From a virus (taxonomy: Duplodnaviria > Caudoviricetes), in the IMG/VR virus record IMGVR_UViG_3300043391_000853, positions 32,001-96,000 of that record: a DNA stretch of 64,000 nt, one strand, 5' to 3'. Positions within the stretch are counted from its first letter, which is position 1. Each line of letters opens with the position of its first letter. The notes under the pieces were generated by a model, which made no database searches, was not told the origin of the DNA, and saw nothing but the letters and a program-made list of their open reading frames with translations. This document shows, piece by piece, positions 6,212 through 52,274 of the stretch. The position numbers and the translations under genes were made by a program.

Positions 6212-6888
6212 AAACCAAACGCTGTAATTGTGTGTTTAAACGGATCATCAACAATAGACTTAACCAATGTGAGCATTTGCGTAGCTAATGCAGCTATTTC
6301 TTTTTGTGCGTGCTCGCTGCAACGTAAATTTAAAAAATGTGCAAAGCTTCGCCAGTTAAACATCATATCGCTGGTTATTTGACTATTGTACATTTTAAAG
6401 AATCTTGCACTTTCTTTAGCTCTTTTGCGTCCGTGCTGTTTTTGCACATCCGCCAAACAAGCGTGATACAGCGCATTGCTGTGTAAAGATTGATCGTATA
6501 GTACTTCTCCCCAGTTATTATAACCCTGCAACCAAGACCTGTTCGATGGATCTATAGGCACATCGAGGAAAACCTCAGGGATATAAAACTTATCTTCTTT
6601 CAATTCTTTGTATCTAGCAGACTCTGCATTCACAGAAACACCTACCCTGTGCTTTATCATCTGGATATGTGTCGCAATATCACAGTTCACCAAGAAGTGC
6701 AGTCCGCTTTTTTCAAAAGGTGTATGGTGACCTTCTTTAGCTAGCTGCTCTAGCAGCTTCGGAATTCTTTTACGTTTATCATCTGATAATTCCCTGCTCG
6801 TACTTGTCCACGCAGACAGTGCGTGCTCAATATCTCCTCCGTAATGTCCAAGCAACTCCACACTATTCTGATTTTCGTGAGCGTCCAT
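6208..6888 (-). CDS. thyX: flavin-dependent thymidylate synthase
   Basis: GHHTPFE, KHR-x8-SARY ThyX motif, NWRSFAHFLNLR...HAQKEI. Confidence 0.92.
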   Translation of the reverse strand: MDAHENQNSVELLGHYGGDIEHALSAWTSTSRELSDDKRKRIPKLLEQLAKEGHHTPFEKSGLHFLVNCDIATHIQMIKHRVGVSVNAESARYKELKEDKFYIPEVFLDVPIDPSNRSWLQGYNNWGEVLYDQSLHSNALYHACLADVQKQHGRKRAKESARFFKMYNSQITSDMMFNWRSFAHFLNLRCSEHAQKEIAALATQMLTLVKSIVDDPFKHTITAFGL

Positions 6889-7357: not shown

Positions 7358-8401
7358 CTAACCTTTCTTCATATCGTAGGGCTGATTCATGACTTTGAGA
7401 CTCCACCAGCTTTTCACCAGAGCTATGGAGTGTATAGGTTGCACTGGACGAACCACGATACCTTCAGCATTAGATCTTTCGTAGTCGTACTTAGCGTTGT
7501 TTGCCATTTCCTGAAGCTTTTCACTTGAAGGAAAAGCTGTAGAATTGAAGCGATGCAGGACAGGTACCGCAGGAATTTTGTGTAACTCACAAAACATCCT
7601 AGTATAATCCCAATCTTTCCAATGATGTGTTCTAACATCTTTCAGTAGGAAGGCGAAGAGTGTGAGCTCTTCTAGCTTCATAGGGTTACCTTGAACACCA
7701 GGACCGCATACTTCTCCTTGAAGGGCCAGCTCTGCTCCTCCGAAAGACAAGGCATCTTTCAGATTATACTTCCTAGCCATCTGCCAGAATAGATTGCCGG
7801 CAGTTTCTTTTAGCTCGAAATTTCTAGAGCATACTCGAAACTCTCCATCCTTGTATATGAATGTCCCACTACTGCCATCGCACTTGAGAGAGGCTATGAA
7901 ATCTTGATTTAAGAACCTGGAATCCTCAGTGACTTCCTGCAGGGCTAGAGGCTCACTTCTAAAGTTATATTCGTCTGTCTTGCTAATGATAGCTGTGGGA
8001 AAGTTTCCCTTGGTATCGCCTGCAAGAGACATACCTACAGGAGCAACCCACTTCTCAATCCCTAGGGTTACGCTAACCTCATCACCATCTTCGAATACAA
8101 CATTGTCTGGCAGACCTGCATATTCACGAAGAGCGCTGATGGGTATAAGCAATCCTGCACTATACTGCCCCTTTAGCTTTACAGTCTTTAATCGAATCTT
8201 TTCATCTCCAGTGTAGGTTTCGTCGACGTATTTTTTAGGTATCAGTGAGTCTGGGAAGATTATCACTGTTTGATCTCCCACCTGATACTGACCTTTTCTA
8301 GTTACAACCTGCCAACCTAGTACAGTTGCACGTTCTATTCTGTCTGCTCCCTCGATAGGTTCGAGAGAAAGTACTCTTGATACTACTGCTAGTTTTTCCA
8401 T
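7358..8401 (-). CDS. RNA ligase (Rnl2/DRB0094-like with N-terminal OB domain)
   Basis: IEGADRIE...GWQVV; KTDE; motif I KCDGSS; QGEVCGPGVQGN; AEGIVVR; final K motif. Confidence 0.9.
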   Translation of the reverse strand: MEKLAVVSRVLSLEPIEGADRIERATVLGWQVVTRKGQYQVGDQTVIIFPDSLIPKKYVDETYTGDEKIRLKTVKLKGQYSAGLLIPISALREYAGLPDNVVFEDGDEVSVTLGIEKWVAPVGMSLAGDTKGNFPTAIISKTDEYNFRSEPLALQEVTEDSRFLNQDFIASLKCDGSSGTFIYKDGEFRVCSRNFELKETAGNLFWQMARKYNLKDALSFGGAELALQGEVCGPGVQGNPMKLEELTLFAFLLKDVRTHHWKDWDYTRMFCELHKIPAVPVLHRFNSTAFPSSEKLQEMANNAKYDYERSNAEGIVVRPVQPIHSIALVKSWWSLKVMNQPYDMKKG

Positions 8402-8841: not shown

Positions 8842-9126
8842 CTATTCCAAGTAGCGTTCAGCTCGCTCTAATTCAGTCACAAGCTTATCAACTATAACCG
8901 GCCCGGTCAGGGGACGGTGGCTACGCAACCAGTCATGTGAAAGCACTCGGCGTGCAGCTGCAAGCATCTTGGACTGCTCATCAGTACAATTTGCTGCAGC
9001 TGCCTGCACAGCTTTCTGTAGCCGTATATATTCCATACTTAATTTAATATAGCTGCCCTCATACTCAGAATCTGGCGGGAGCTGGTTATATATGTCAGCC
9101 ATACGGTTTTTCCATTCACGACTCAT
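8842..9126 (-). CDS. hypothetical protein
   Basis: 94-aa ORF. Confidence 0.6.
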   Translation of the reverse strand: MSREWKNRMADIYNQLPPDSEYEGSYIKLSMEYIRLQKAVQAAAANCTDEQSKMLAAARRVLSHDWLRSHRPLTGPVIVDKLVTELERAERYLE

Positions 9127-9464
9127 GGAGATGTATAATGTCTCGATCCAGAATATTGCGGACTACAAAATACACAGTATTCTTCTGCAGGCACATAATG
9201 CACACAGACGTCCCTAGACTGCGTTGTATCTGCAGCCTCTACAGCTACAACGCCGTTGTCTGTCTGGATATTACTTAACTCACGATTCAGGTACCATATA
9301 GCTTTTTTTAAATCCTGCTCTTTGTTACCTTTCTCCTCGCAGCGCCAAATATATTTAAGTGCATTACCCAGACAAAAGCCGAACTTTAATTGATTAATGA
9401 TGTCGATGCATTCGACACCGTTAATCTGATTATAATGATTTGGATGGTTAACTGCTTCTTTCAT
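9123..9464 (-). CDS. DUF3310 family protein
   Basis: VNHPNHY...ECIDII...GNALKYIWR...QDLKKAIWYL. Confidence 0.88.
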   Translation of the reverse strand: MKEAVNHPNHYNQINGVECIDIINQLKFGFCLGNALKYIWRCEEKGNKEQDLKKAIWYLNRELSNIQTDNGVVAVEAADTTQSRDVCVHYVPAEEYCVFCSPQYSGSRHYTSP

Positions 9465-9833: not shown

Positions 9834-9907
9834 TGGTTGGCTGCCCAGGACTCGAACCTGGAATAAGAGATTCAAAATCTCCTGTGTTACCATTACACCA
9901 ACAGCCA
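9834..9907 (-). tRNA. tRNA-Gln(TTG)
   Basis: TGGCTGT/GCAGCCA acceptor, loop TT-TTG-AA, encoded CCA. Confidence 0.93.
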
Positions 9908-9910
9908 GTG

Positions 9911-10138
9911 TTACGGCTTCAGTGCATCTAGCAGGATTTCACTCGAGTAGTAAACTTGTGAAACCATGTTTCCTTTTTTATCTGGGTGTATAAACTCGTA
10001 CAGCGGACGAGCCAGGGGTCTACCTCCTTCATCTCTGTTGTGGATATCTACACATTTGGCTACACCGATGAACGAACTGTCTGGAGCCTCTAGGTCCTCG
10101 TAGTCTATATAATAGTAGTTATTGAGTTTAGGAATCAT
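9911..10138 (-). CDS. hypothetical protein (start MIPKLN)
   Basis: ATG at 10138; the upstream GTG falls inside an RNA motif. Confidence 0.6.
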   Translation of the reverse strand: MIPKLNNYYYIDYEDLEAPDSSFIGVAKCVDIHNRDEGGRPLARPLYEFIHPDKKGNMVSQVYYSSEILLDALKP

Positions 10139-10160
10139 ACATCTTACTCTAAGAAAAGCT

Positions 10161-10420
10161 CTAGTCTCTCCTAGCGTCACACCACTTATACACTGGCAGG
10201 TGTCGCCTCTATAGATGTCTCTCCATTAGTCACACCACTGACCCAACCAGCGTAAGCATCAGGTGCTATGCCAATCAAGCCTAGCGGCATGGAGCCACTA
10301 GCAGGTGTCGCACCCCAATTGGGGGAATCTTCTACCGTCTCTCCGATATGTCACACAACTTTTATCGACCGAGTACGCCCGGTCCGTTCTTTTCCGAAAT
10401 CCAGAAAAGGCATGTGTCGC
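10161..10420 (-). ncRNA. three tandem copies of an unidentified structured RNA motif
   Basis: GCGACAC(C/A)TGC...AGT(G/T)GTGTGAC-stem-GAGAGA-stem at 10333-10420, 10212-10311 and 10161-10206, with compensatory changes. Confidence 0.75.
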
Positions 10421-10422
10421 AA

Positions 10423-10552
10423 TTCTCAGCAGGATTTACAGGCTGCTACATTCCAATTACAGCCTCACCTAATACCAGGGGGGTCGTGGTTACTGAGAAA
10501 AGACGCCTTGAGGCCTCTCAGCCGCAAGCAGCAGAGGAAGGGATCTCAAGGC
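10423..10552 (-). ncRNA. two long stem-loop domains downstream of tRNA-Met
   Basis: GCCTTGAG/CTCAAGGC (10505-10552); TTCTCAGTA/TGCTGAGAA enclosing AGGCTG/CAGCCT (10423-10499). Confidence 0.5.
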
Positions 10553-10558
10553 AATAAA

Positions 10559-10632
10559 TGGTTGCGGGACCAGGAATCGAACCTGGGACTTCAGCTTATG
10601 AGACTGATGTTTTGCCACTTCACTATCCCGCG
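10559..10632 (-). tRNA. tRNA-Met(CAT), initiator-like acceptor stem
   Basis: CGCGGGA/TCCCGCA with C1-A72 mismatch, loop CT-CAT-AA, encoded CCA. Confidence 0.92.
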
Positions 10633-10645
10633 ATTTAAATGTTAA

Positions 10646-10690
10646 AGAGCAGCCGGCCCCACCCAACCGGATGAGGCCGTTACTGTTTCT
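10646..10690 (-). other. GC-rich hairpin between tRNA genes
   Basis: CGGCCTCATCC-GGTT-GGGTGGGGCCG; the G-U pairs form on the minus strand. Confidence 0.5.
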
Positions 10691-10747
10691 ACACTTGGTA
10701 GATCAGCTTTATAAAGTATCTCATTTTTATACTAGAACGCAACAAAA

Positions 10748-10846
10748 AAACTCTGGTTGGGATCGAACCAACGGCATGTGCATTATTCCCGGCGTTTTGG
10801 TCCTTAACCATGAGGGTGCACCGCTCTACCGCTGAGCTACAAAGTT
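10748..10846 (-). tRNA. tRNA-like RNA with 34-nt expanded anticodon loop, no encoded CCA
   Basis: AACTTTG/CAGAGTT acceptor, D-arm TAGCTCAGCGGTAGAGC, GTGCA/TGCAC stem, T-arm GTTGG-TTCGATC-CCAAC. Confidence 0.8.
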
Positions 10847-10856
10847 TCTATCCAAT

Positions 10857-10932
10857 TGGTCGTGACGGAGAGACTCGAACTCTCGATAACTTGCTCCCAA
10901 GGCAAGTGCCATAGCCACTAGGCGACGTCACG
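10857..10932 (-). tRNA. tRNA-Pro(TGG)
   Basis: CGTGACG/CGTCACG acceptor, loop CT-TGG-GA, encoded CCA. Confidence 0.93.
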
Positions 10933-22277: not shown

Positions 22278-24986
22278 CTACTCTTTCCATTCCCAAATAT
22301 TCTTTTCAAAGTTCCAAGCAGTCTCTTTCTCGAATATCTTTTCTTTACCTTTCCATCTATCCATGATCATAAGCTCGCAACCTACATTATCTCCAGTGGC
22401 TAGCTTTGTCTCATGACAGAACACATGCTTCAACAGCTCTTGAATATAGTTACCCTTCACAAGGTCTTTGTGAACTGCCCAGTAGCCTGCATCATGTACA
22501 GTATTGACTGGATATATGTAGCGCATCCATAGGTTATCTTTCTTGAGTAGATCTTTTAGCTTCACAGATGCTTCCCACATGAACCATGCAAGCTCACTGG
22601 CTACAGGGAACGCCAGGCTTTCGTTCATCCAGCCTGCCAAGATACCGAAGTTTTCCGTATCTTCGTAGTTTAACACCAATCCTCTAGCGTTGGTTATGCG
22701 GCGATGCTTTTCCACTTCCTGTGTACATTTGTCTCTATACTGCATGTACTTTTCATATCGTGTCCAAGTATCGAGAGCATACTCGAGCGTACCTAGTCCT
22801 ACATGCAAACCATTCTCTGCATAGATATCTGCTTGAATAGGTACAGCTGCAAACTTTAATCCTGCTGTATACGACACACGGAAAGTAATACTTTTCGCGA
22901 TAACATATTTACTTACATCTTTTTTAGTGAGTGTAGGGTCATTAAAATACTCACGCATTTTTGTTTGGTGAAAATTACCTGACCGAATATCGTGGATGAA
23001 TCCTTGATCCTGACTAAGAAAGGCCATAATCGCTAGATCGGCCCCTGCAACATCAAGCTCTGTCCAGTAGTAATCTTTGTGGCCTGGGCAAAATATGTTC
23101 CTGATGTTTTTGGGTAGCAGATGACTCACATTTTTCTGCTCATCGCTATTGAAGTTATTGTAGCCTGGTACAAATATATCAGGAATGTACGCCAAAACCT
23201 TAGATGCAGGGTTCTGTACATTGGGACTGCTACTCGCCCTGAAGTTTTTCAAGCACTCGAAGAAACTTGCATGCACACGACCATCATTGCATATCGCTGC
23301 CCAGTAGCTTTGCTTCAAGGGCTCCTCGTCATCATCTTCGTGCTCGATTTCGTCCGCAGAGTGTATACCTTTCTTGCTCAGAAATTTTGTAGCGAATACC
23401 CCAATCCTACTAACACTAAGCAGTAGTGTAATAGCTTTGTGTGTGGCCTCAAGCTTCTCAAAATTATCCGTATCAGATCTATCGAACTTGGCGATTAGCT
23501 CTTCGATCTGAAATTTTATAGTACTAAGACTTTTGCCGTTAGTACTAGGCTCATACATCTTTTGAGTTTGAAACTTTTGCTTATCGTACCAAACCTTACT
23601 CTTGGGAGACTTACCGCTCTTTGTGTAGTAGGCCGGAGTCACATTCAAGACGTCAAACAAAAGACTCTTTTTTTGCGGCGCACTGTTGGGATTAAAATCA
23701 TCGACCCCAAAACGCTCCTTCAAAAAGGTGACAAGCTCTAATCTGAGTTCGTCGTATTTCTTGCTATACTTTTCAGTGATATCCTCTAGTACGTCCTTAT
23801 CTATACCTATACCTGTCAACTCCATGTCAGTGAAGTAGTGGGTTAATGGTAAATATATATTATAGTAGGCATCCTTTAAATGCTCTGGAAAAGAGGCCAT
23901 CATGCGTAGGCATGCCTCCCTATGACTGACTGCATCTCCAGCACAATATTTATAATATATATCAGGCTCAAGAAACTTCATCTTTGCAAGCTCCGCTTTA
24001 CCGAGCTTGTGTTCTTTCATCTTTCTATTTAGTGCAGTATAGTACGGTTCATAGTTTGTGAAAGACTTTATACCTGTCTCCAGCCCTTTACTCATTCTCG
24101 AATCGAAGAACGCCACAGCCTTCATACCGTCAAAGGCAAGTGTTTCATCAGGGAGGTTAAAGCCTCTGTGTCTAAGACGCAGATCGTCCGCCCGCACATT
24201 CCAACCTAATCTCTTGGCTTCAGGGTGCTCCAGTAGAGGCTTCATCGTATCTAGAAGCTCTCTATTTTCAGTTATACCATCTTTGCTAATGTTGAGAACT
24301 ATAGCCACGTCAGGCTGACAACTGTATTGGAACTCATACATCACCTCGTCATCAGTGAATTTTGAGCCGAACCACTCAGCGTCATAGCCTACAGTCAGCA
24401 TCCCTTTGCTTATGTATTTTTCTATATAAATACGGTTCTCTTCAGGATCATCTACTACAAAATAATTGTAGTGTTTATATTTGAGTGTTCCGTCCAATAC
24501 TTTTTTAGCTAGTAGAAACGTCTCCCTGAACTCTGGTCTCTTTGTAGGATCCATGACCACAATCATGCCTGGAGCATAGTTTGCCAGCACTTTGCCGTAG
24601 CTGCTGTCAATCAGTTCTCCAATATAATCACCCATCTTGGTGTTTGCTCGCATCACCCTTTTGAAGACCTCTGCCCCCATAGGCATAATCAGTTTAGGTT
24701 TGAGTTCTGCGATCTCAGCATCTAGCGCAGCACTCCATTCCTCAATATCTTCAGCGGAGGGTTTTGGTTTGCTGCCAATGCCGCACTTCACCATACCTGT
24801 GAAATGTACACGCGAAAGGGGAATATCTGCCGCGCTAAGGGCCGAAAGTACCTCCGCAGCCATATCTCCCTTTGTGCCGAAGGCTCTGGCCTCCAAGTCG
24901 TCTTTATTTGGATGACTGAACACAATCAGTAGCTCAGGTTGCGCCCCCTTTTTTAAGACGTTTTCTACTTTGACTTTATCGGACAT
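22278..24986 (-). CDS. polA: family A DNA polymerase with N-terminal UDG-like and 3'-5' exonuclease domains
   Basis: UDG-like N-terminus (VKC...EIAELKPKLIMPMG); exo GYDAE, YCAGDA; ME.TGI; PNVQN; motifs A/B/C ELDVAGAD, AKSITF..SY, VHDA. Confidence 0.88.
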   Translation of the reverse strand: MSDKVKVENVLKKGAQPELLIVFSHPNKDDLEARAFGTKGDMAAEVLSALSAADIPLSRVHFTGMVKCGIGSKPKPSAEDIEEWSAALDAEIAELKPKLIMPMGAEVFKRVMRANTKMGDYIGELIDSSYGKVLANYAPGMIVVMDPTKRPEFRETFLLAKKVLDGTLKYKHYNYFVVDDPEENRIYIEKYISKGMLTVGYDAEWFGSKFTDDEVMYEFQYSCQPDVAIVLNISKDGITENRELLDTMKPLLEHPEAKRLGWNVRADDLRLRHRGFNLPDETLAFDGMKAVAFFDSRMSKGLETGIKSFTNYEPYYTALNRKMKEHKLGKAELAKMKFLEPDIYYKYCAGDAVSHREACLRMMASFPEHLKDAYYNIYLPLTHYFTDMELTGIGIDKDVLEDITEKYSKKYDELRLELVTFLKERFGVDDFNPNSAPQKKSLLFDVLNVTPAYYTKSGKSPKSKVWYDKQKFQTQKMYEPSTNGKSLSTIKFQIEELIAKFDRSDTDNFEKLEATHKAITLLLSVSRIGVFATKFLSKKGIHSADEIEHEDDDEEPLKQSYWAAICNDGRVHASFFECLKNFRASSSPNVQNPASKVLAYIPDIFVPGYNNFNSDEQKNVSHLLPKNIRNIFCPGHKDYYWTELDVAGADLAIMAFLSQDQGFIHDIRSGNFHQTKMREYFNDPTLTKKDVSKYVIAKSITFRVSYTAGLKFAAVPIQADIYAENGLHVGLGTLEYALDTWTRYEKYMQYRDKCTQEVEKHRRITNARGLVLNYEDTENFGILAGWMNESLAFPVASELAWFMWEASVKLKDLLKKDNLWMRYIYPVNTVHDAGYWAVHKDLVKGNYIQELLKHVFCHETKLATGDNVGCELMIMDRWKGKEKIFEKETAWNFEKNIWEWKE

Positions 24987-25513
24987 TTTGTGTTTTTGAT
25001 TGATTTGTGCAGAAGCCTTCTCAGCCCCCTAAGAGTTGTACATAGGATGAATCCTACATTACCTACAGATATTTGTAACTTTTCGGATATTTCTTGATAG
25101 CTGCAGTTATCAAAGAATCTTAATTTTATGATTGCGAGCGTCCTGGGTTTCATCTTAGTCAGGGCAGTGTGTAGTGTGGCGTAGTCGCTATCTGTTTTCT
25201 CAATGCTCTGTAGCAACTCAAGAGGATTTAGTTCGGGCGAAACCTCCTCCTCTATATTTTCTGTCGGCTGGAGGCTGTACCTCTTGGATTTGGCTAATGT
25301 TTTGAGTGCGGTGTTTCTTGTAACTGTAAACAGCCACGGGTCGATATGGTCTTTTATCTTGTCGTAGTCTTGTTTTAGCAGTTTCAAAAATACGGTCTGT
25401 ACCACATCCAAAGACTCACTATGGTCTTTTAGCAACTTGTGAGCAAAGCTTAAGAGAGGCTTATGCTTATCTAGGTATATCTCATTAAATACTTCTGAGG
25501 TGATTGTGTTCAT
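24965..25513 (-). CDS. ECF-type sigma-70 factor
   Basis: DVVQTVFLKL, PWLFTVTRN, region 4 SYQEISEKLQISVGNV. Confidence 0.9.
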   Translation of the reverse strand: MNTITSEVFNEIYLDKHKPLLSFAHKLLKDHSESLDVVQTVFLKLLKQDYDKIKDHIDPWLFTVTRNTALKTLAKSKRYSLQPTENIEEEVSPELNPLELLQSIEKTDSDYATLHTALTKMKPRTLAIIKLRFFDNCSYQEISEKLQISVGNVGFILCTTLRGLRRLLHKSIKNTKCPIKSK

Positions 25514-26916
25514 ACAGGCGAATTAAAACCTGAGTTTGCTGAAGGCAACAGGTCGTTTCTGGGTACATTGGTGAAGTTGCTTTTTGATCTTTCTTTGATG
25601 TCACTTTTTTCTGTTTCGGCCCTGCTCCTGTCTCCTGCACCCTTCTGCTCAAAATTCATATACTCAAGCTCTGCAAAGTGCTCGCATTGGAAATTTTTAG
25701 CATGTCTTGATTTTAGCGAGAATATATTAACTATATCGCTCTGCGCTGAATCTCTACCTATAGCTAGGGCCATATCCACAGGCTTTAATATACCTTTAAA
25801 CCCTGATATCTCAGCGTTAGTGAACTGCTTGGTCATCTTGCCTCCCGCCTGATGTAGTAACCATATACTGAAAGGATGCGTGCCTCCTATCAGGTGATTA
25901 CTTAGATCATCCACCTCGAAAGCTACCTTGTTATACTTCTGCCACTCTGCGTCGTATTTTGCATTTGTGGACAAATAATCCATCTGATCTATGTATACTA
26001 AGTCTGGGTGGTAGCCCTCGTCTTCGTATTTTTTATCCAGGAAATTTTGGATATACTGAGCAGTCAGCGGTGTGACATCCCGCATGTCTAAAATCTTAAG
26101 ATTACTACAGGCCAGCTTATCTACAGCAGACATGTTCTTGAATGCCTCGGTAAGCTCCTGCTTGGCGAAGGGGCAACCTTTGTGTAGATCTGTATACGGT
26201 ATTCTAAACATATTACTGTACACCCTGTTACAGATATTCTCTGCAGGTTCCTCTAGACTCAGGTATAGTACCTTTCTGTATCGTTTAGCGTTTTGGAGTG
26301 CTGAGTATATAGCCATCGCTGTTTTGCCGCTGCCTGAATGTCCAAGAATTAGTCCGAATTCCTGGTAGTTCAGTCCTCGAGCCTTGCTATCTATTGCGAC
26401 AAACCCTGTACCCAAACTTTCTTTTTGTTCTACAGTAATCAGATCTTGAAACGGGACAAACTCACGTATACCATCAGTACCGTCCTTCAAGTCAATTGAC
26501 CCGATGAGTTTATTTGCGTCCTGTACCAGCTCCTCAGGTGAGCGGGACTTGTCTATTTTAAGCGTCTGAAATCTTCTGAACTTTATAAATTCGGCAAGAT
26601 GACTACGAATATGCTCTGTATTTAACGCATCTCCAGCGTAGATATAGTCCCAGAACGCTAGCGTCGTATCCGCGTCTAGGTGTGTTATGTTGTACTTTTT
26701 TTGTAGTGTTTTCAACGTAGCCAAGCACAGGTTAGCGTCGATAGGTCCCTGCTTTATAGTTAGCGCAGTATCAACAAAAACGTTGTATATGTTGATTGTT
26801 CCAAAATCGTTGGGAGTTATCTGTAAGTCTAGCGCTTTTTGCAGTGTCTGCTTGTCTCTAAACAAACACTTGATGGTCAGTTCTATGTAGTCAGAGTCGT
26901 TATATTTATCACTCAT
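25510..26916 (-). CDS. DnaB-like replicative helicase
   Basis: GHSGSGKT, YLSLEE, VYIDQMDYL, LHQ, KSRH. Confidence 0.88.
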   Translation of the reverse strand: MSDKYNDSDYIELTIKCLFRDKQTLQKALDLQITPNDFGTINIYNVFVDTALTIKQGPIDANLCLATLKTLQKKYNITHLDADTTLAFWDYIYAGDALNTEHIRSHLAEFIKFRRFQTLKIDKSRSPEELVQDANKLIGSIDLKDGTDGIREFVPFQDLITVEQKESLGTGFVAIDSKARGLNYQEFGLILGHSGSGKTAMAIYSALQNAKRYRKVLYLSLEEPAENICNRVYSNMFRIPYTDLHKGCPFAKQELTEAFKNMSAVDKLACSNLKILDMRDVTPLTAQYIQNFLDKKYEDEGYHPDLVYIDQMDYLSTNAKYDAEWQKYNKVAFEVDDLSNHLIGGTHPFSIWLLHQAGGKMTKQFTNAEISGFKGILKPVDMALAIGRDSAQSDIVNIFSLKSRHAKNFQCEHFAELEYMNFEQKGAGDRSRAETEKSDIKERSKSNFTNVPRNDLLPSANSGFNSPV

Positions 26917-27527
26917 TTTGCGCCAATTATTCTGTTAATGTCTAGCTTTCTAAGCTTTATGAATTCTCGTAGCTTGGAAGACATTTCCTCTCTAGCGATG
27001 TGCTGGTACTTATCGAGTACTGCTTGAATCCTTTTTTCGCTGTAAAGTAACCTGAACCATGCGTAAAGCTTTATACCAGAGTCAATCAACACATCCTCGA
27101 TAGGAATACCTCGGCTGGTGTATATCCCGCATATACGTACCTGTTCGTCCCATAAGTCTACAGGCTCTATACTGAAATTAGAATCGTATCCTGCCTCACC
27201 ACTGTTCGAGACTTTATCCTTAATAAACATGCGCGCCTCTACACCCTGTAGACATGCAGGTCTGAAGAACTCTGTGCGAGCCATTCTGGAGTACATTAAA
27301 TCTACATATACTCCAGGGTCCACCTCATAGAGCTTGCATATCTCTGCAGCTTTCTCGAAAAACTCATCATCCTTGGACGTGGATCGGTAGACGTATCCTC
27401 GCTTGGTTAATCGTTTCTTTTCAATAAAGAATCCGGTCAGCTGGTCTATAAGCTTAAGGTTTTGCTGCTTTTTAAGTAATCGCTGCTCGAGTGTTTCCTG
27501 TCTGTCCTGCTCCTCTGGTATGCTCAT
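26913..27527 (-). CDS. hypothetical protein between primase and helicase
   Basis: 204-aa ORF overlapping both neighbours. Confidence 0.7.
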   Translation of the reverse strand: MSIPEEQDRQETLEQRLLKKQQNLKLIDQLTGFFIEKKRLTKRGYVYRSTSKDDEFFEKAAEICKLYEVDPGVYVDLMYSRMARTEFFRPACLQGVEARMFIKDKVSNSGEAGYDSNFSIEPVDLWDEQVRICGIYTSRGIPIEDVLIDSGIKLYAWFRLLYSEKRIQAVLDKYQHIAREEMSSKLREFIKLRKLDINRIIGAK

Positions 27528-28419
27528 ACTGAATTATTTTTTGTAATTGTTCTGTCGTGGTATCGTCAGGAGATTCGAACCCATACTCTCGTAAATCTAT
27601 GTTAATGCATTTACGCCCGTTAGCTTTAAACTCTCCCTGTATTTCTCTCGCCAGCTCTTGTGTGCTGTCTTCTCCGTCAAGTATGAGTGTGATAGTCTTC
27701 CACTCCTGTATCAATTGTTTCTGAGTAGAGGATATCCCCTTGCCTAGGGTGGCTACAGCGTTTGCGAGTTTCAAGGCTTTTTTGATACCTTCCACCACAA
27801 CCACGTCTTTGTACCCTTTTGCGAAGTGGTAGTTGAATATATGCTCTCCTTTTGGAAACAGGTGCATATACCGCATAAACTGAAATCTGTCACCGTTCCA
27901 TGTGCCTGGGATAAATCTAATCTGCCAGCCTACATAAGATTTATCTTTTCCGAACACAGGAAAAAACAGGCTGCCGCTTGTGTTGACGGTGAAGCCGCTA
28001 TCGAACCGTATATTTATACCTCCTCCTTCAGGAATATACCTGATACCTAGGGAGTCATAATACGCCATATTTTCTAAGTGATCTTTTTTTAGAAAATCCA
28101 CAACAGGCTGGGTGTTGTCAAGACCGCTCAAGCTGACGCAATCTTGATATGGTGCGATCGTAGCGTAAGGATACTCCACTTCCTCAATATCGCCTGCAGC
28201 TCTTTCAAATTCTTCGGTGCTTCCCAACAGCTCATGTAGGTCTATTGTCTGTTCACAAATGAAGCATCTGCTTACTGCCCAGCCTGGGCAGATATAGCGC
28301 TTCATTTTTTTACTATGGATAGGGTCACAGGTCGGGCAGGGAATTCTGTAACTCCCGCCCGACACTGACTTGACCTTACCGAATTTACTCTTCAGTAGAT
28401 CTCGAACCTTTTGATTCAT
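27472..28419 (-). CDS. DNA primase (Zn finger plus TOPRIM)
   Basis: CPTC...CFIC; GWQIR; VVEGIKKA; ATLG; LDGED; SPDD. Confidence 0.85.
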   Translation of the reverse strand: MNQKVRDLLKSKFGKVKSVSGGSYRIPCPTCDPIHSKKMKRYICPGWAVSRCFICEQTIDLHELLGSTEEFERAAGDIEEVEYPYATIAPYQDCVSLSGLDNTQPVVDFLKKDHLENMAYYDSLGIRYIPEGGGINIRFDSGFTVNTSGSLFFPVFGKDKSYVGWQIRFIPGTWNGDRFQFMRYMHLFPKGEHIFNYHFAKGYKDVVVVEGIKKALKLANAVATLGKGISSTQKQLIQEWKTITLILDGEDSTQELAREIQGEFKANGRKCINIDLREYGFESPDDTTTEQLQKIIQYEHTRGAGQTGNTRAAIT

Positions 28420-28660
28420 TTTGTTCTAGCAGCTCCAAACTCTCCAAAAATTTGGCATCTGTAAAATAATACACATCATTTATATCTGGCTCAGGATTAC
28501 TTTTGTAATCAGGATGTATCCGCCACGCGTTACTGACTATTTGAGCCAGCCTTAGATGAGGGCGAGAATACCAGTACACGTTTAGTTTATCTAAAAGTGT
28601 GGCAATATATTCTGCACGATTAAATTTTTCGTCCATGGGATTATTCGATGTACAGATCAT
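28385..28660 (-). CDS. hypothetical protein (DUF1040-like)
   Basis: W...PHLRLAQIV...YYFTD. Confidence 0.6.
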   Translation of the reverse strand: MICTSNNPMDEKFNRAEYIATLLDKLNVYWYSRPHLRLAQIVSNAWRIHPDYKSNPEPDINDVYYFTDAKFLESLELLEQNESKGSRSTEE

Positions 28661-29027
28661 TCTCTATAAGAATCATATTTTTTAAGTTTACTAAGCGGTT
28701 CTCTATCTCTTGCACTATAAGCATCTCATATGCGCAGGCTTCTTGAAAAGCAAAGTATTCTTCGTCTACGTTTGCAGGCACAATTTTCAGCATCCAACTA
28801 TCGTCTTCGTTTTGATCCAAGCGTATAGGATTCCGTTTACCTACAGCGTGTAAATAGCTAGGTTCTTCAGATAGTGTCGGGTCTATGTAGCGTAAGGATT
28901 CCCATTTCAATTTTTTATCTTTCTGTACTGTGACACATGCGGTGACTTCTACTATGACATAGCTGTAATAAGGATGCGCAAAACTAAACTGTACAACGGT
29001 ACGTTCACCTGGCTTAATTTTTAGCAT
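28641..29027 (-). CDS. hypothetical protein
   Basis: 128-aa ORF. Confidence 0.6.
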   Translation of the reverse strand: MLKIKPGERTVVQFSFAHPYYSYVIVEVTACVTVQKDKKLKWESLRYIDPTLSEEPSYLHAVGKRNPIRLDQNEDDSWMLKIVPANVDEEYFAFQEACAYEMLIVQEIENRLVNLKNMILIENDLYIE

Positions 29028-30477
29028 ATTTAGTCCAATCTATTTGAGAAGGAGAGTCGACTATCTTTACCGTCCATCCTTGCTCCTCGTAGTATTTCAT
29101 TCGCTTCTTGGCCATAGACTCAAGAGCAGTGTCATGGTTGTCCATAAAATCTACAAGCACAAAATGTGTCTTGGGAGGCAGATTGTACTTGGTCATATAC
29201 TCTGGAGTCAAAATTCTGCTACCTCTGTAAGCTTCTTGCAGAACCTCAACCTTGCTGCTGCCTCCACTTGCCTGGACTACTACCCTACAGTTTGGAATAT
29301 CTACACCTGCTCTAAAGGCGTCGGAAGCTATCAATATCTGGAACTCGTTATTGCCGAACTCTGCAATTGTAGCATTCTGCTGCTTAGGACTCAGTGCAAA
29401 TGCTCCTACATTTTTCTTACTACTCTCCCTGTGTAGGTATTTAGTATCTTTTGGCATGTACTTGTACATAGGTATCAAATGGTCTTTGACATGGTCTATG
29501 AATACAATTGTTTGCCAGTCTGCTGGAATCTTTTCGCAAACCTTACCTATCAACTCGTTGCGTTTTTCGCAACGCTTTACACCGTACTTTAGCTTGCTAT
29601 CGAAGCTGCTATAGTTCTCTATGAATAGGTCGTCAGGCATTCTAACCATGTAGACCATACCTGGAACAACCGCACCTGCAGCCTCGGCATCCTCATACGG
29701 GAAATATATCAAGTCTTCACCAAAGAGTCCTTTTAATAACTTATCTGTGTTATTGAAAATGCCTTCTGTGGTGGCGCTGTAGCCGAACATCCTTATCGGA
29801 CGCATCTGCTTTAATGCATTTTGAAATGTATCCTGTCCTGCTGACTGCATCTCATCGACAAGTAGCAGCTGACATTTCTCTAATGAGCAGTTCTGTAGCG
29901 ACCTGAATGTGGTTATGGTGATGTCTTCACTAATATCATTATTCCCATCACCCACCAATCCTATATGTTTGTGAGGAAACAGCTCTTGGAACTTTTTGTG
30001 TGTCTGTAGGACAACCTGCTTTAACGGTATGGCCAGGATCGTGTTTAGTTTATGCCAGGCTGCGTATGTGATAGCCTGAATAAACGTCTTACCGAACCCT
30101 CCTGTGGCGTTGATGACGCCGCTGTCCTCCTGCCCTTTGAACAGTAGGTCTATGACAGGTTGATGTTGATACTCTCGAAGCTTAATCTTTTTAATCTCTT
30201 CCCAATTAGGTTCAGGCATAGGAGTGCGGAGGTCATGCACCTCCGCAACATCCAAATGCTTATTCATTAACGCCATTACAGCGTGATAGAACCCAGGTAA
30301 GGTGTAAATTGAGCCGTCTGCATCTGCAGCATACAGCAGTCTTTCTGAAAAGACACACTCTCGTCTATAGTTGACCATCTTCATCTCTCGATGATGATAT
30401 CTTAGAAATTTAGACAAGTAGGCAGGACATGGGTTTATCTTGAGTCCTCCATCAAACCTGGTGAGCTGTATCTTCAT
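29014..30477 (-). CDS. superfamily 2 helicase (UvsW/XPB-like)
   Basis: LREYQ, ATGGFGKT, VDEMQ, SAT, GVDIP, Q..RGSR. Confidence 0.88.
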   Translation of the reverse strand: MKIQLTRFDGGLKINPCPAYLSKFLRYHHREMKMVNYRRECVFSERLLYAADADGSIYTLPGFYHAVMALMNKHLDVAEVHDLRTPMPEPNWEEIKKIKLREYQHQPVIDLLFKGQEDSGVINATGGFGKTFIQAITYAAWHKLNTILAIPLKQVVLQTHKKFQELFPHKHIGLVGDGNNDISEDITITTFRSLQNCSLEKCQLLLVDEMQSAGQDTFQNALKQMRPIRMFGYSATTEGIFNNTDKLLKGLFGEDLIYFPYEDAEAAGAVVPGMVYMVRMPDDLFIENYSSFDSKLKYGVKRCEKRNELIGKVCEKIPADWQTIVFIDHVKDHLIPMYKYMPKDTKYLHRESSKKNVGAFALSPKQQNATIAEFGNNEFQILIASDAFRAGVDIPNCRVVVQASGGSSKVEVLQEAYRGSRILTPEYMTKYNLPPKTHFVLVDFMDNHDTALESMAKKRMKYYEEQGWTVKIVDSPSQIDWTKYAKN

Positions 30478-30659
30478 TTTTTCTTTCTTTGTGCAGGCTT
30501 ACGGGGTTGTGCAGGCTTACGTGGCTGGGAGGTTTTCCTACTTTTCGCTACCTGTTGATCTACTGCAGCCACCAAAGCTTCCTTGGCGAAGTCTTTTACG
30601 TAAGAGGCTACACCGGACATCAGTTTGCCCATCAATGTAGCTGATTTAAGATTGTCCAT
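30474..30659 (-). CDS. small basic protein with QPRKPA repeats
   Basis: SQPRKPAQPRKPAQRKKK tail. Confidence 0.6.
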   Translation of the reverse strand: MDNLKSATLMGKLMSGVASYVKDFAKEALVAAVDQQVAKSRKTSQPRKPAQPRKPAQRKKK

Positions 30660-30676
30660 ATTAATGACTGTCTTTT

Positions 30677-30904
30677 TTAGTTTTTTGGTTTTGTCTTCAG
30701 TATCTTTGTTTGAGAGGTGGTTTTATTTTTCTTTTTAACTCTCAAAGCTTCCGCCTGCAGCTCATGCATTTCTTTTTCAAGGGTCAATGCAAGCTTCAGG
30801 TCCTCTTCAGGGACTTCGTCTTTTCGTGCGATGATGTCTGCTGCGTAGCTATCGTACCAGCGAAGAAGCATGTAGATTCTCTTCAGCTTCTGCGTGCCAG
30901 TCAT
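30677..30904 (-). CDS. hypothetical protein
   Basis: Coupled to sbcC stop. Confidence 0.55.
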   Translation of the reverse strand: MTGTQKLKRIYMLLRWYDSYAADIIARKDEVPEEDLKLALTLEKEMHELQAEALRVKKKNKTTSQTKILKTKPKN

Positions 30905-32943
30905 AAGCTGATTGTATTATCCACATACTCACTCAGTTCGCTGTGATGATCGATTACAATAACCTGCTTGAATTTGCTACTCTTACCTAACGTCTTGATA
31001 ATCTCGAAGTATTTCTTCGCATTATCACTATTAAGTCCGTAGCTACCTTCATCAATAATCATAAACGGGAACGCTCCTACAAACATGTTGTGTAGGGCTA
31101 GACGTAAGCTAAAGCCGACCATAACCTGTTGACCGCCTGATATAGCAGGTAACTGTAACCCTTCTTCGTTGAATACATCAATCCCAAAGGTTTCATTTAC
31201 TTTCGCAGTGTACGGGAAATCGAAGCTTGCTAATACTTCATTCATGTACTCTGTTACTGTGCTGCTATAGGTCTGTATCAGCGCCCTAGGGAACCTGCCT
31301 GTGTGAAACAGATCATAGACACCCTTCAGTACGCCAACATATTCTTTACGTTTGTTGTTTTTATCTACATACGCATTGTTGTCTTGCAGGTCCTGGTTGA
31401 GAGACTTTAGCTCTCTCTTGTTGGTAGCTACCTCAACCTCTAGCTTCTTTGCAGCTTCCCTGGATTTCTGCATATCATCTATCTTGGCTGAGACAGCTAT
31501 CTCTTCCGATGTAAACTCTACAGGATCCCTGTCGTAGGTTACTAGACCTGCGATTTGTAATCTCTTGCTCTGTGTAGCGCTTTCAGCCTCGCGATAGTCT
31601 GCAGTAAGAATACTGAGTCTGGTTTCCCATTCCGAGTATTTGGCTACAACACTTTCACACAAGGTATATTCTTCCTGATCGAATGATACGTTGTTATAGG
31701 CCGCCAAGGCGCTGTCGATGGTCTGTAGCTCTCTTTCATAGCTTTCCCACACATCTAGCTGCTCCTGACTCTTACGCAGCTCTTCAGTGACTTCCAGCAG
31801 CCTGGCTTTCTGTTCCTTGCCTGCCTCAATCAAGGGTTCGCGTTCTTTCTCGATGTGCTCAATCAGCTTTTTAACATTGTCTACCTGTGTACCGCAGGTT
31901 GGACACGTCCCTGAGGCGAGTCCTGACTTTCCGTACTCTTCCATCTTACGATTCAGCGCAATTACCGCATTCCTCTTGGCTGTCAATTCAGTGGCCCACT
32001 CAGTCTCTTGCTTCCTCAGTGCGGCTACATGGACTTTGTCTATCTGTACACTAGGCACACTCAGGTTTTTCTTCCTGCTCTCCCACAACTGCTTCGTGTC
32101 GTACAGCGTCTTGGCAGCTTTCTGCTCCGCCAAGCCTGCACGATAATCCTGAACGTTGATCAGCTGCATCTTGCTACGCAAAGTACTAGCTGTCACATCA
32201 AGTGAAGCGCTCCTGGATAAACAATCCTCTAGCTCCGCGGCTAGCAGCTTGTGGCTGTCCCTAGAGGCCTTCACTTTTGAGAGGAAAGACTTTCTCGCTA
32301 CTAGTGTGTCATAGTCGCCTTCGTTAACCGAGATCTGCTCTAGCTCTTCTGAGCCCAACTCTATAAGCTTCTCAAGACACTGGATATCACTGGTAAGCTT
32401 CACCATATCTTTAACAGGGTACTCAGGAGGAGCATCCTTGATATAGTTATTCCAGATAACATCACGAATCTTTGTGGTATTGGGCACCATAAAGATCTTT
32501 TGAAACAGTTTCTCTCGGGTAGCGTTATCTCCATTGAAGAGAAGGGCTATCTCTCCTTGATTGGAGACAATGACGTTCTGTACAATGTTTTTATCTATCT
32601 GAAACAAGCTGTCCCAAATCTCGTTAACCTCACTGCTCTTCTTGTACGTTTTTCCCTCGTACATGAAGTTTACTTTAGCTGTATCTATATGTCTTTCTAG
32701 TACAGCCTCTTTCCCATTCACTACTAGATGACCTATCACATACCCACTTGTCTGTCCTACAGTGAGCATATCGGATTTTGTTTTTCCGTAACCTTCCCCT
32801 GTAAGGAGAAAGATAACAGCTTCAACAATACTGCTTTTTCCGCTGCCGTTGCCCCCGATGATGCCTGTGACGCCTGCGTTGAACTCGAATTGTGAACTTC
32901 TGTGAGAGCGGAAGTTTTTGAGAATCAGTCTAGTTATTTCCAT
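30901..32943 (-). CDS. sbcC: SbcC/Rad50-like ATPase
   Basis: NFRSH, GGNGSGKSS, zinc hook CPTCG, signature ISGGQ, IIDEG, IDH. Confidence 0.92.
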   Translation of the reverse strand: MEITRLILKNFRSHRSSQFEFNAGVTGIIGGNGSGKSSIVEAVIFLLTGEGYGKTKSDMLTVGQTSGYVIGHLVVNGKEAVLERHIDTAKVNFMYEGKTYKKSSEVNEIWDSLFQIDKNIVQNVIVSNQGEIALLFNGDNATREKLFQKIFMVPNTTKIRDVIWNNYIKDAPPEYPVKDMVKLTSDIQCLEKLIELGSEELEQISVNEGDYDTLVARKSFLSKVKASRDSHKLLAAELEDCLSRSASLDVTASTLRSKMQLINVQDYRAGLAEQKAAKTLYDTKQLWESRKKNLSVPSVQIDKVHVAALRKQETEWATELTAKRNAVIALNRKMEEYGKSGLASGTCPTCGTQVDNVKKLIEHIEKEREPLIEAGKEQKARLLEVTEELRKSQEQLDVWESYERELQTIDSALAAYNNVSFDQEEYTLCESVVAKYSEWETRLSILTADYREAESATQSKRLQIAGLVTYDRDPVEFTSEEIAVSAKIDDMQKSREAAKKLEVEVATNKRELKSLNQDLQDNNAYVDKNNKRKEYVGVLKGVYDLFHTGRFPRALIQTYSSTVTEYMNEVLASFDFPYTAKVNETFGIDVFNEEGLQLPAISGGQQVMVGFSLRLALHNMFVGAFPFMIIDEGSYGLNSDNAKKYFEIIKTLGKSSKFKQVIVIDHHSELSEYVDNTISL

Positions 32944-51792: not shown

Positions 51793-52274
51793 TGGTGGAG
51801 GTGAGGGGATTCGAACCCCTGTCCTTAGTGTTTCAGCATATAGACTTTCTACAGCTTTTCTGATTATTCCTATAAGTGCCCCGGACGTCAACCAGAAAAA
51901 ACCGACTTGCTGCGCTAATGCTCAACAAATCTTCTCCCCTGCAGGCATATTCTCAAACTTTTTACGAGGTCTGATCATGACTCGATCTAACGCAAAGGAT
52001 CTTGTGGTGTTTCGCAACCACTAGGTTACCCTCATCCTAGGTCATATTACCTGCGAGCAACGCTCGCTGCGGTTAAGCAGCAAGCAAAGCTTCAGAATCA
52101 ACGAATCCAAAGGACTCGAGGATTGCCTCAGCTTCTGCAACACTAGGCGCAAACGAATTGTCGTTAGCATTTATTTTTTTGTCCAGAGGATTTCCTGCCT
52201 AAGCAGCGAGGCCAACCAGACTTCCTCGGCTGAATCTACATACGTTAACACTAAGTCGAAACCAGTACACCCCC
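51793..52274 (-). ncRNA. ssrA: tmRNA (482 nt); tag ANDNSFAPSVAEAEAILESFGFVDSEALLAA at 52073-52168
   Basis: 5' GGGGGTGTACTGGTTTCGAC; 3' GACAGGGGTTCGAATCCCCTCACCTCCACCA; G3-U70; ATAAAT-GCT resume context; tag ends LAA. Confidence 0.93.

Follow-up and report, generated by a model that had tools for sequence, protein, structure and literature searches.

A small two-hairpin RNA element, repeated in a phage tRNA cluster, represents a conserved and widespread family missing from Rfam

The tRNA cluster of a phage carries three tandem repeats that, judged by comparison of sequences, are true copies of a small folded RNA element, and this element represents a real RNA family that is strongly conserved, widely distributed, and described neither in Rfam 15 nor in the searchable literature. 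With little change it recurs across hundreds of phages, prophages, and mobile elements from many bacterial phyla. The repeats lie in a stretch of 64,000 nucleotides (positions 32,001 to 96,000 of the IMG/VR record IMGVR_UViG_3300043391_000853, a freshwater phage), which is called the window in the following. The members of the family can be viewed as small autonomous RNA modules on the transcripts of phages, prophages, and other integrative elements. The favoured proposal, to which a probability of only about 0.3 is assigned, is that the module acts co-transcriptionally and in cis on RNA polymerase, by analogy with the put RNA of phage HK022.

The first part of the element is an irregular helix P1 (GCG-ACACC ... 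GU bulge ... GGUGU-GAC), the tip of which bears an insert that varies; a short linker then leads to hairpin P2, which closes an invariant G-GAGAGA-C. A preliminary description had placed three head-to-tail copies on the minus strand between 10161 and 10420, and direct reading of the sequence confirms the copies and their positions (Table 1). All three follow the formula GCGACAC(A/C)UGC, an insert of 10 to 69 nt, AGU(U/G)GUGUGAC, one or two nt, a stem of 3-5 bp, GAGAGA, and the return strand, and they have a core of 43 nt in common. Between the strands of stem 2, GGAGAGAC is found in each of them, and the pattern GTGTGACN{3,8}GGAGAGAC matches three times in the window versus never in 100 shuffles; there is no further match in the rest of the 149,817-base record, which thus holds three sites in total.

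Table 1. Features of the repeat array and its surroundings, in positions of the window
Feature	Position	Strand	Basis
RNA ligase (phrog_968), just downstream of the tRNA cluster	7361-8401	-	PHROG
Nucleotide-kinase-like protein (phrog_236), just downstream of the tRNA cluster	9126-9464	-	PHROG
75-codon ORF between copy 3 and tRNA-Gln, without PHROG match	9911-10138	-	ORF
Copy 3, near-minimal form	10161-10206	-	sequence, pattern match, model R1
Copy 2, long form	10212-10311	-	sequence, pattern match, fold, model R1
Spacer hairpin CCCCCAAUUGGGG between copies 1 and 2	10313-10325	-	sequence
Copy 1, long form	10333-10420	-	sequence, pattern match 10337-10356, model R1, fold
Leader X, conserved non-coding, from tRNA-Met to copy 1	10421-10504	-	alignment A4
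tRNA-Met (CAU), upstream neighbour of the array	10559-10632	-	Aragorn, Rfam

In copy 1, P1 is formed by 10413-10417 and 10353-10357, GAC follows at 10350-10352, and G-GAGAGA-C occupies 10337-10344. Its insert forms two hairpins, UUUUCUGG..CGGAAAAG and GGACCGGG-CGUA-CUCGGUC. Copy 2, with GGAGAGAC at 10217-10224 and AUG/CAU flanking its GAGAGA, has an insert with the hairpin CUAGUGGC-UCCAU-GCCGCUAG and a second domain (GCUUACGCU..GGGU), and copy 3 reads GCG-ACACC-UGCCAGUGUAUAA-GU-GGUGU-GAC-G-CUAG-GAGAGA-CUAG, followed by AGC-UUUUCUU. Stem 1 indeed covaries, as had been claimed, with ACACA/UGUGU in copy 1 versus ACACC/GGUGU in copies 2 and 3, and stem 2 pairs in spite of its three different sequences (UAUCG/CGGUA, AUG/CAU, and CUAG/CUAG in copies 1, 2, and 3). 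Fold computation agrees that the long inserts form hairpins of their own. The flanks 'UGC...AGU' of the insert, noted earlier as conserved, keep that status with a refined structure, as in copies with longer inserts U9 pairs with the A of 'AGU' and the GU is a two-base bulge, and the G-C of 'UGC...AGU' opens the insert helix where there is one (seen in copies with inserts as UGC...GCA-GU). The inserts are of recurrent types, one with the GGCUCCAUGCC hairpin, which is the type of copy 2 and occurs in many family members, and one with a GGACCGGG-loop-CUCGGUC hairpin; the insert type of copy 1 is found together with the ACACA/UGUGU variant also in the loci L004, L014, L039, and L107. Copies 1 and 2 each represent one insert type, and their order is kept in the relatives L014, L039, and L044. 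The palindromic spacer hairpin CCCCCAAUUGGGG also lies between copies in L014 and L085, and in L042 it occurs as CUCCAAUUGGAG.

The motif had initially been left without a match to known ribozymes, and this stands: no described ribozyme or other Rfam family matches (Rfam 15, E up to 10). At gathering thresholds, Rfam 15 finds only six matches to the tRNA model and one tmRNA in the whole window. A cmscan of 9900-10900 against all 4227 families of Rfam 15 at E up to 10 gave only tRNAs and chance matches, none of them on the copies, and 34 related loci yielded tRNAs and one fragment of LSU rRNA, with no ribozyme family among the matches. In the searchable full-text literature no description of the motif was found, including work on GAGAGA hexaloops and new phage ribozymes. 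Neither the region nor a Xenorhabdus-type copy had a BLAST match among the GenBank phages.

The structure is supported by comparison. A covariance model (R1) of 43 positions and 10 pairs was built from a seed of nine minimal copies, copy 3 among them. R1 scores 30.3 bits on copy 1 (E 1.5e-6), 39.9 bits on copy 2 (E 4.4e-9), and 57 bits on copy 3 (E 1.3e-13), which is itself a seed sequence. A search with R1 found 97 copies in 62 of 100 viral sources, some of them outside the exact pattern, so that modelling and searching phage genomes produced homologues with covariation in large numbers (92 distinct members). Across the 92 distinct sequences, 96% of the cells pair, and G-U pairs are confined to the motif strand. 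In P2, three of the four pairs have double-sided changes (121 cells), a value reached by none of 500 shuffles, and controls with slid positions collapse; in P1, two pairs have double-sided changes, from A-U to G-C and from C-G to A-U, in five sequences each. C2/U2 faces the invariant G of GAC in 88 of the 92 sequences and G1 faces its C in 83, and these pairs could extend P1, with G3 and A then forming an internal loop. Among the 97 copies there is no variation in GAC, in the closing G-C pair, or in GAGAGA, an invariance that is in part ascertainment because the loci were fetched with those letters fixed. The folding energies of the single copies in the window are unremarkable (z from -1.1 to -1.6), and the support for the structure is therefore comparative and not thermodynamic. 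The sequence flanking the family copies is not conserved, so the unit is self-contained; its size ranges from a minimum of 43 nt to more than 100 nt with inserts. The preliminary description is thus correct in seeing here a folded RNA in which the stems covary and unpaired nucleotides are invariant.

A number of known identities were tried and rejected. Hammerhead, twister, twister-sister, pistol, hatchet, and hairpin ribozymes have no match in Rfam at E up to 10, and CUGANGA and GAAA are absent. For the twister-like ACACUGCC...AAAAGUG, no twister model of Rfam matches. The string GGTGTGAC-N4-GGAGAGA resembles the SP6 promoter. T7 and SP6 promoters are about 23 bp of conserved duplex DNA with the start at GGAGA and need no pairing of the RNA, and a promoter of this type is rejected on two grounds: covariation joins the four bases preceding the would-be start to bases that follow it (121 double-sided changes, G-U pairs), and the 150 kb hold no more than 3 sites. 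As a mimic of rRNA the motif fails with less than 5 bits for R1 on the E. coli rrn operon; GGUGUGAC is the complement of 16S 1405-1412 and recurs unchanged at 23S 1823-1830, which is at chance level because about 17 words were tried on 4.6 kb. An intrinsic terminator would have a G+C-rich stem with a U run right behind it, and the terminator scanner calls none at the three window copies. A REP- or MITE-like repeat does not agree with only 1-4 copies per bacterial genome, and an integron attC site does not agree with flanks that hold no convincing core sites. A CsrA/RsmA sponge RNA of the CsrB, RsmY, or RsmZ kind is rejected in view of the GAGAGA loop and the lack of an Rfam match, AGGA-type loops being present only in extra hairpins of Marinobacter copies. 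The consistent class of downstream gene that would mark a riboswitch is not seen, the downstream features being mixed, and a homologue of T4 rnaC/rnaD or of HK022 put is rejected with negligible R1 scores on both.

In the window, the array is embedded in a tRNA cluster that reads, on the minus strand, tRNA-Thr, an ORF, tRNA-Pro, a tRNA-like gene, tRNA-Met, a spacer of 138 nt, copy 1, the spacer hairpin, copy 2, copy 3, the 75-codon ORF, tRNA-Gln, tRNA-Val, and a strong terminator-like hairpin. The leader X, which has no match in Rfam, contains the hairpin GGCUG-UAAUUGGAAUGUAG-CAGCC, and in alignment A4 (L004, L014, L044, and part of L039) it shows an invariant AAUUGGAA.GUAGC loop on a stem with double-sided changes. 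As the last approximately 80 nt of the spacer are conserved with a covarying hairpin, the non-coding unit comprises X, copy 1, the hairpin, copy 2, and copy 3. Directly 3' of tRNA-Met, a long hairpin GCCUUGAG...CUCAAGGC followed by GUCUUUUCU is found at 10505-10552 (minus strand), which is missing at the same place in the related phages of alignment A4.

The tRNA-like gene of the cluster (10748-10846, minus strand) has an anticodon stem GUGCA/UGCAC and a loop enlarged by an insert of 33 nt; it scores 49.6 bits with the tRNA model of Rfam and is not called by Aragorn. Over-long tRNA matches also adjoin the motif in L004 (5464-5561) and L085 (9290-9390), and in the Pseudomonas phage Itty13 (L251, about 2570-2665) an over-long tRNA-like stretch lies 3' of the motif, by reading of the sequence. 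Elsewhere in the window, at 51793-52274 (minus strand), a phage tmRNA is matched over its full length by RF00023 of Rfam with 104 bits. A UvsX-like recombinase is encoded near the tRNA cluster, and the RNA ligase and the nucleotide-kinase-like protein encoded just downstream of it form a pairing that resembles the tRNA repair genes of T4.

In two metatranscriptomes of one study, contigs cover 10298-10589 (run X16) and 10378-10502. The X16 contig spans the 3' part of tRNA-Met, X, and copy 1 and reaches into the start of copy 2. An RNA contig over tRNA-Met, X, and copy 1 is compatible with co-transcription, with carry-over of DNA as another possible source. These are assembled contigs of RNA libraries only, the ends of which cannot be read as RNA ends, and 9966-10148 and most of copies 2 and 3, which the contigs leave out, do not count as evidence of absence. 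At 10335 the contig has, in the RNA sense, A in place of G, which turns the G-U pair in P2 of copy 1 into A-U. A regulatory tie of the array to the 75-codon ORF had been considered in the preliminary description and is not supported, as the relatives L039 and L044 have tRNAs, not the ORF, after the same array, and no downstream gene is constant across the family.

The family is found far beyond this phage. An exact-pattern scan of IMG/VR gave at least 120 loci, and most of the matches listed carry the full two-part motif, many of them with several copies. A stricter pattern likewise gave at least 120 loci in species-representative bacterial genomes, and among the matches listed there are Gammaproteobacteria (with many Marinobacter and Pseudomonadales), Acidobacteriota, Planctomycetota, Cyanobacteria, Gemmatimonadota, and Chloroflexota; the motif also occurs in cyanophages. 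Searches of whole bacterial genomes found 1-4 copies per genome, with single copies as the rule. The bacterial copies are in prophages, ICEs, and islands, with neighbourhoods that include variable islands with transposases and an AbiEii-like ATPase, the region 3' of a phage-type integrase, and the end of a TrbL/VirB6 conjugation operon. With the 43-nt core as BLAST query (E up to 10), cultured phages were reached, three of which were confirmed by R1. In Marinobacter phage PS3 the copy is downstream of an integrase, as is the copy in L194 that follows an integrase; in Pseudomonas phage Itty13 two copies adjoin a tRNA-like gene in a long non-coding gap before terS; and in Morganella phage IME1369_02 the copy lies among lysis and packaging genes, between the Rz/Rz1 spanins and the holin-terS block. 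Across all these loci there is no constant neighbouring gene, the downstream features being tRNAs, other copies, small ORFs of no family, terS, and genes on the opposite strand.

Two observations at individual loci may be added. The Marinobacter copies L132, L135, L142, and L238 have one or two extra hairpins 60-10 nt upstream, with AGGA or (A/C)GGAU loops that resemble CsrA/RsmA binding sites, and then a conserved tail (CCACCCGCGCUUGUCACAAUUU). In L134, a contig binned as Candidatus Sulfotelmatobacter, an array of 13 tRNAs that also holds the motif contains a stretch of 65 nt (6711-6775, minus strand) that matches large-subunit rRNA (positions 1174-1238 of the archaeal model, 56 bits), and this stretch may, by its sequence, be a phage-carried mimic of an rRNA fragment.

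The viral copies lie on the gene strand, and all tRNAs within 1.5 kb have the same orientation as the motif. The association with tRNA clusters that was suggested by the window is only partial: 14 of the 62 viral loci have a tRNA within this distance, and 19 of the 62 have the array 3' of a major capsid gene of the SU10 type (approximately 350 codons, PF17236, phrog_1328). In 15 of these 19, the array begins 9-13 nt past the stop codon and occupies the gap to the next small ORF. Where tRNAs are present, the motif often ends very close to the following one, 1-8 nt before its start in L087, L027, L036, and L044 and about 2-4 nt before it in L134, and the distance from the 3' end of an upstream tRNA to the start of the motif is 22-282 nt, the window being an example with 138 nt.

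Such an arrangement could be taken as the mark of RNA cleavage. The motif would then be a new class of self-cleaving ribozyme or a specific recognition site of a nuclease that cuts polycistronic phage transcripts, by which tRNAs would be released and the capsid message separated from the downstream genes. This appears rather unlikely, even though the small invariant core, the freely covarying P2, and an optional, expandable stem are features also of hammerhead, twister, and HDV-like ribozymes, and though intergenic tandem arrays scattered over phages and mobile elements of many phyla, together with the ends just before tRNAs, point in the same direction. The ends produced by a cut could be processed by the RNA ligase and the nucleotide kinase encoded nearby, and ribozymes that serve the maturation of phage tRNAs are known in the form of theta ribozymes (PMC10879173). 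Against a cleavage stand the lack of any match to an Rfam ribozyme model at E up to 10 together with the missing hammerhead core, a sequence on which the nested double pseudoknot of HDV-like ribozymes cannot be drawn, upstream tRNA 3' ends that are not within 5 nt as they are for theta ribozymes, and the lack of a conserved nucleotide beside the core at which a cut could be placed. That one RNA contig runs uncut through copy 1 into copy 2 also speaks against it, weakly, as contigs hide cut forms.

The location in tRNA arrays and directly 3' of the major capsid gene can also be read in terms of RNA abundance, as tRNA and capsid transcripts are the most abundant transcripts of a phage. Aboard these RNAs a decoy or sponge would reach a high copy number, and its invariant loops might bind and thereby sequester some conserved protein of the host, for example an RNase, a translational regulator, or a nuclease of a defence system. 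The invariance of exposed nucleotides would fit with this, as would the tandem arrays of 2-5 copies that are present in 24 of the 62 viral loci and the upstream hairpins of Marinobacter with their (A)AGGAU and AGGA loops, which are similar to CsrA/RsmA sites. In P2, however, the GGA begins at the closing base pair and is not presented in an A(N)GGAN loop, CsrA leaves the rest of GAGAGAC unexplained, and the models of CsrB, RsmY, and RsmZ do not match. No candidate protein co-occurs with the module, most bacterial genomes have a single copy, and since the family is present in cyanobacterial genomes and cyanophages, a partner that is limited to a few phyla would not be sufficient. A decoy function is thus considered improbable.

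What all copies have in common is that unpaired and even helical nucleotides are kept across phyla with no constant neighbouring gene, and the partner of the module should therefore be a universal host machine, a universal small molecule, or the RNA itself. RNA polymerase is the partner favoured here. The module would fold on leaving the polymerase, often at a U-rich, pause-like tract a few nt past P2, and once folded it would act in cis on the elongating polymerase in the manner of put RNAs, which bind the zinc-binding domain of the beta' subunit and suppress pausing as well as termination. Transcription might in this way be kept going through long untranslated and hairpin-rich stretches such as the tRNA cluster of the window, where X, copy 1, the hairpin, copy 2, and copy 3 would constitute a non-coding multi-module RNA of about 0.4 kb that is co-transcribed with tRNA-Met. 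The copies are always on the transcribed strand, and the gaps that hold them are untranslated parts of transcription units that are long or used heavily. A U-rich and G-poor tract (at least 4 T in 6 nt) at +5 to +7 after P2 is present in 35-48% of the copies versus 8-11% in control flanks; among 63 viral copies 30 have it, versus 5 of their 5' flanks, and among 72 bacterial copies 25 have it, versus 8 of their 5' flanks. Where the tract is present, it starts 3-5 nt past a stem of 4-6 bp, which would put P2 approximately 10 nt behind the end of the tract, and this corresponds to the geometry of hairpin-dependent pauses like those of his and trp. Several points speak against the proposal. A put-like element would require neither arrays of as many as five copies nor subtypes in a fixed order, and the nearly invariant sequence of the P1 helix fits a binding site for a protein or a ligand equally well. 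An element of the put kind lies between a promoter and downstream terminators that it overrides, whereas a terminator scan with a crude predictor found no excess downstream of the arrays (24 of 50 loci versus 21 of 50 upstream; 52 in sense versus 51 in antisense orientation), and a consensus scanner, likewise crude, called no promoter or terminator beside the copies in the window, in Itty13, and in the Morganella phage.

The U-rich tract also allows for a reading of the module as a small aptamer, akin to a riboswitch, that binds a metabolite or ion present in all cells; P2 and the tract, found after it in 35-48% of the copies, would here be a weak terminator or pause that modulates read-through. 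A core that is identical across phyla, an expandable peripheral stem, and tandem units are typical aptamer traits, and in some copies at capsid genes (L027, L045, L065, L068) a tail ACAC(C) could compete with P1 for the GGUGU strand. This competing ACAC tail is found in 7 of 135 copies and hence is not general, the downstream genes have no consistent class with many copies preceding tRNAs or further copies, and no terminator was detected at the copies, all of which makes an aptamer of this kind quite improbable.

The 43-nt core is kept with hardly a changed letter among phages of such groups as cyanobacteria, proteobacteria, and acidobacteria, and it is likely that it touches something fundamental, be it RNA polymerase, the ribosome, a universal nuclease, a common metabolite, or its own backbone. 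With its placement by tRNAs, behind the capsid message, and at the ends of integrative elements, the module is probably a general tool for the management of phage transcripts. A new class of catalytic or polymerase-binding RNA that needs no dedicated protein and works in many phyla, be it a self-cleaving ribozyme of about 45 nt or a universal RNA-only antiterminator, is a tentative prospect. The minimal copy has less than 50 nt and is short enough for synthesis, which makes these functions directly testable, and cultured carriers are available with Pseudomonas phage Itty13, Marinobacter phage PS3, and Morganella phage IME1369_02. The family merits an entry in Rfam, which would also permit a better annotation of the seemingly empty gaps in phage tRNA clusters.

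Among the known systems, GOLLD and ROOL are also non-coding RNAs of phages and prophages that are often encoded beside tRNA genes, but they are single folds of 400-800 nt with Rfam models, whereas the motif has a core of 43 nt and also occurs singly. The hammerhead and twister ribozymes of prophages are alike in being scattered over intergenic regions, in occurring in tandem, and in combining variable optional stems with an invariant core; their conserved cores, however, are missing from the motif, in which the sequence of the P1 helix itself is nearly invariant. The T4 species 1 and species 2 RNAs (rnaC and rnaD, annotated in AF158101) are two tandem small RNAs directly downstream of a tRNA, as in the window, yet R1 with filters off reaches at best 2.3 bits in T4 68000-76000, and rnaC resembles, in the sequence of its 3' part, a tRNA T-arm, which has no counterpart in the motif.

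Theta ribozymes are minimal HDV-like RNAs in phage tRNA clusters that are abundant in metagenomic phages and thought to function in the handling of tRNA transcripts (PMC10879173). Like the motif, they are small structured RNAs inside such clusters, but they have the nested double pseudoknot of HDV and cut where the tRNA before them ends, whereas the motif has two consecutive hairpins. The theta site is within about 5 nt of the tRNA 3' end, while the motif often abuts the 5' end of the next tRNA and starts 22-282 nt after the preceding one. With 8 nt separating the two strands of P1, minimal copies have no room for P2, P3, and L3, and an HDV-like double pseudoknot (P1, P1.1, P2, P3, and P4, with a catalytic C in J4/2) cannot be drawn; the HDV families of Rfam have no match at E up to 10.

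A further likeness is to the put RNAs of HK022, which are approximately 70 nt long, consist of two irregular stem-loops, function without a dedicated phage protein, and have a pause after the second stem; they occur more than once per genome (putL and putR) and act in cis in transcript leaders (PMC9378689). The motif shares two stem-loops with bulges, as its P1 has the GU bulge and a G/GA internal loop, and it shares the lack of a protein partner in that it has no constant neighbouring gene. The likeness is one of architecture only, since R1 stays below 4 bits on the putL and putR regions: with filters off, its best score in HK022 24000-31000, which contains both put sites, is 3.6 bits and not at these sites, and the put sequences contain neither GUGUGAC nor GGAGAGAC. 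A local likeness of the copy 1 insert (GAACGGACCGGG..CUCGGUCG) to putR (GAACGGCCCGG..GGUCGGG) was dismissed, as it is not common to other family members. The tandem arrays, the expandable tip of P1, and the invariant GAGAGA loop set the motif apart from put, and while put is confined to HK022-like phages, the motif family spans many phyla.
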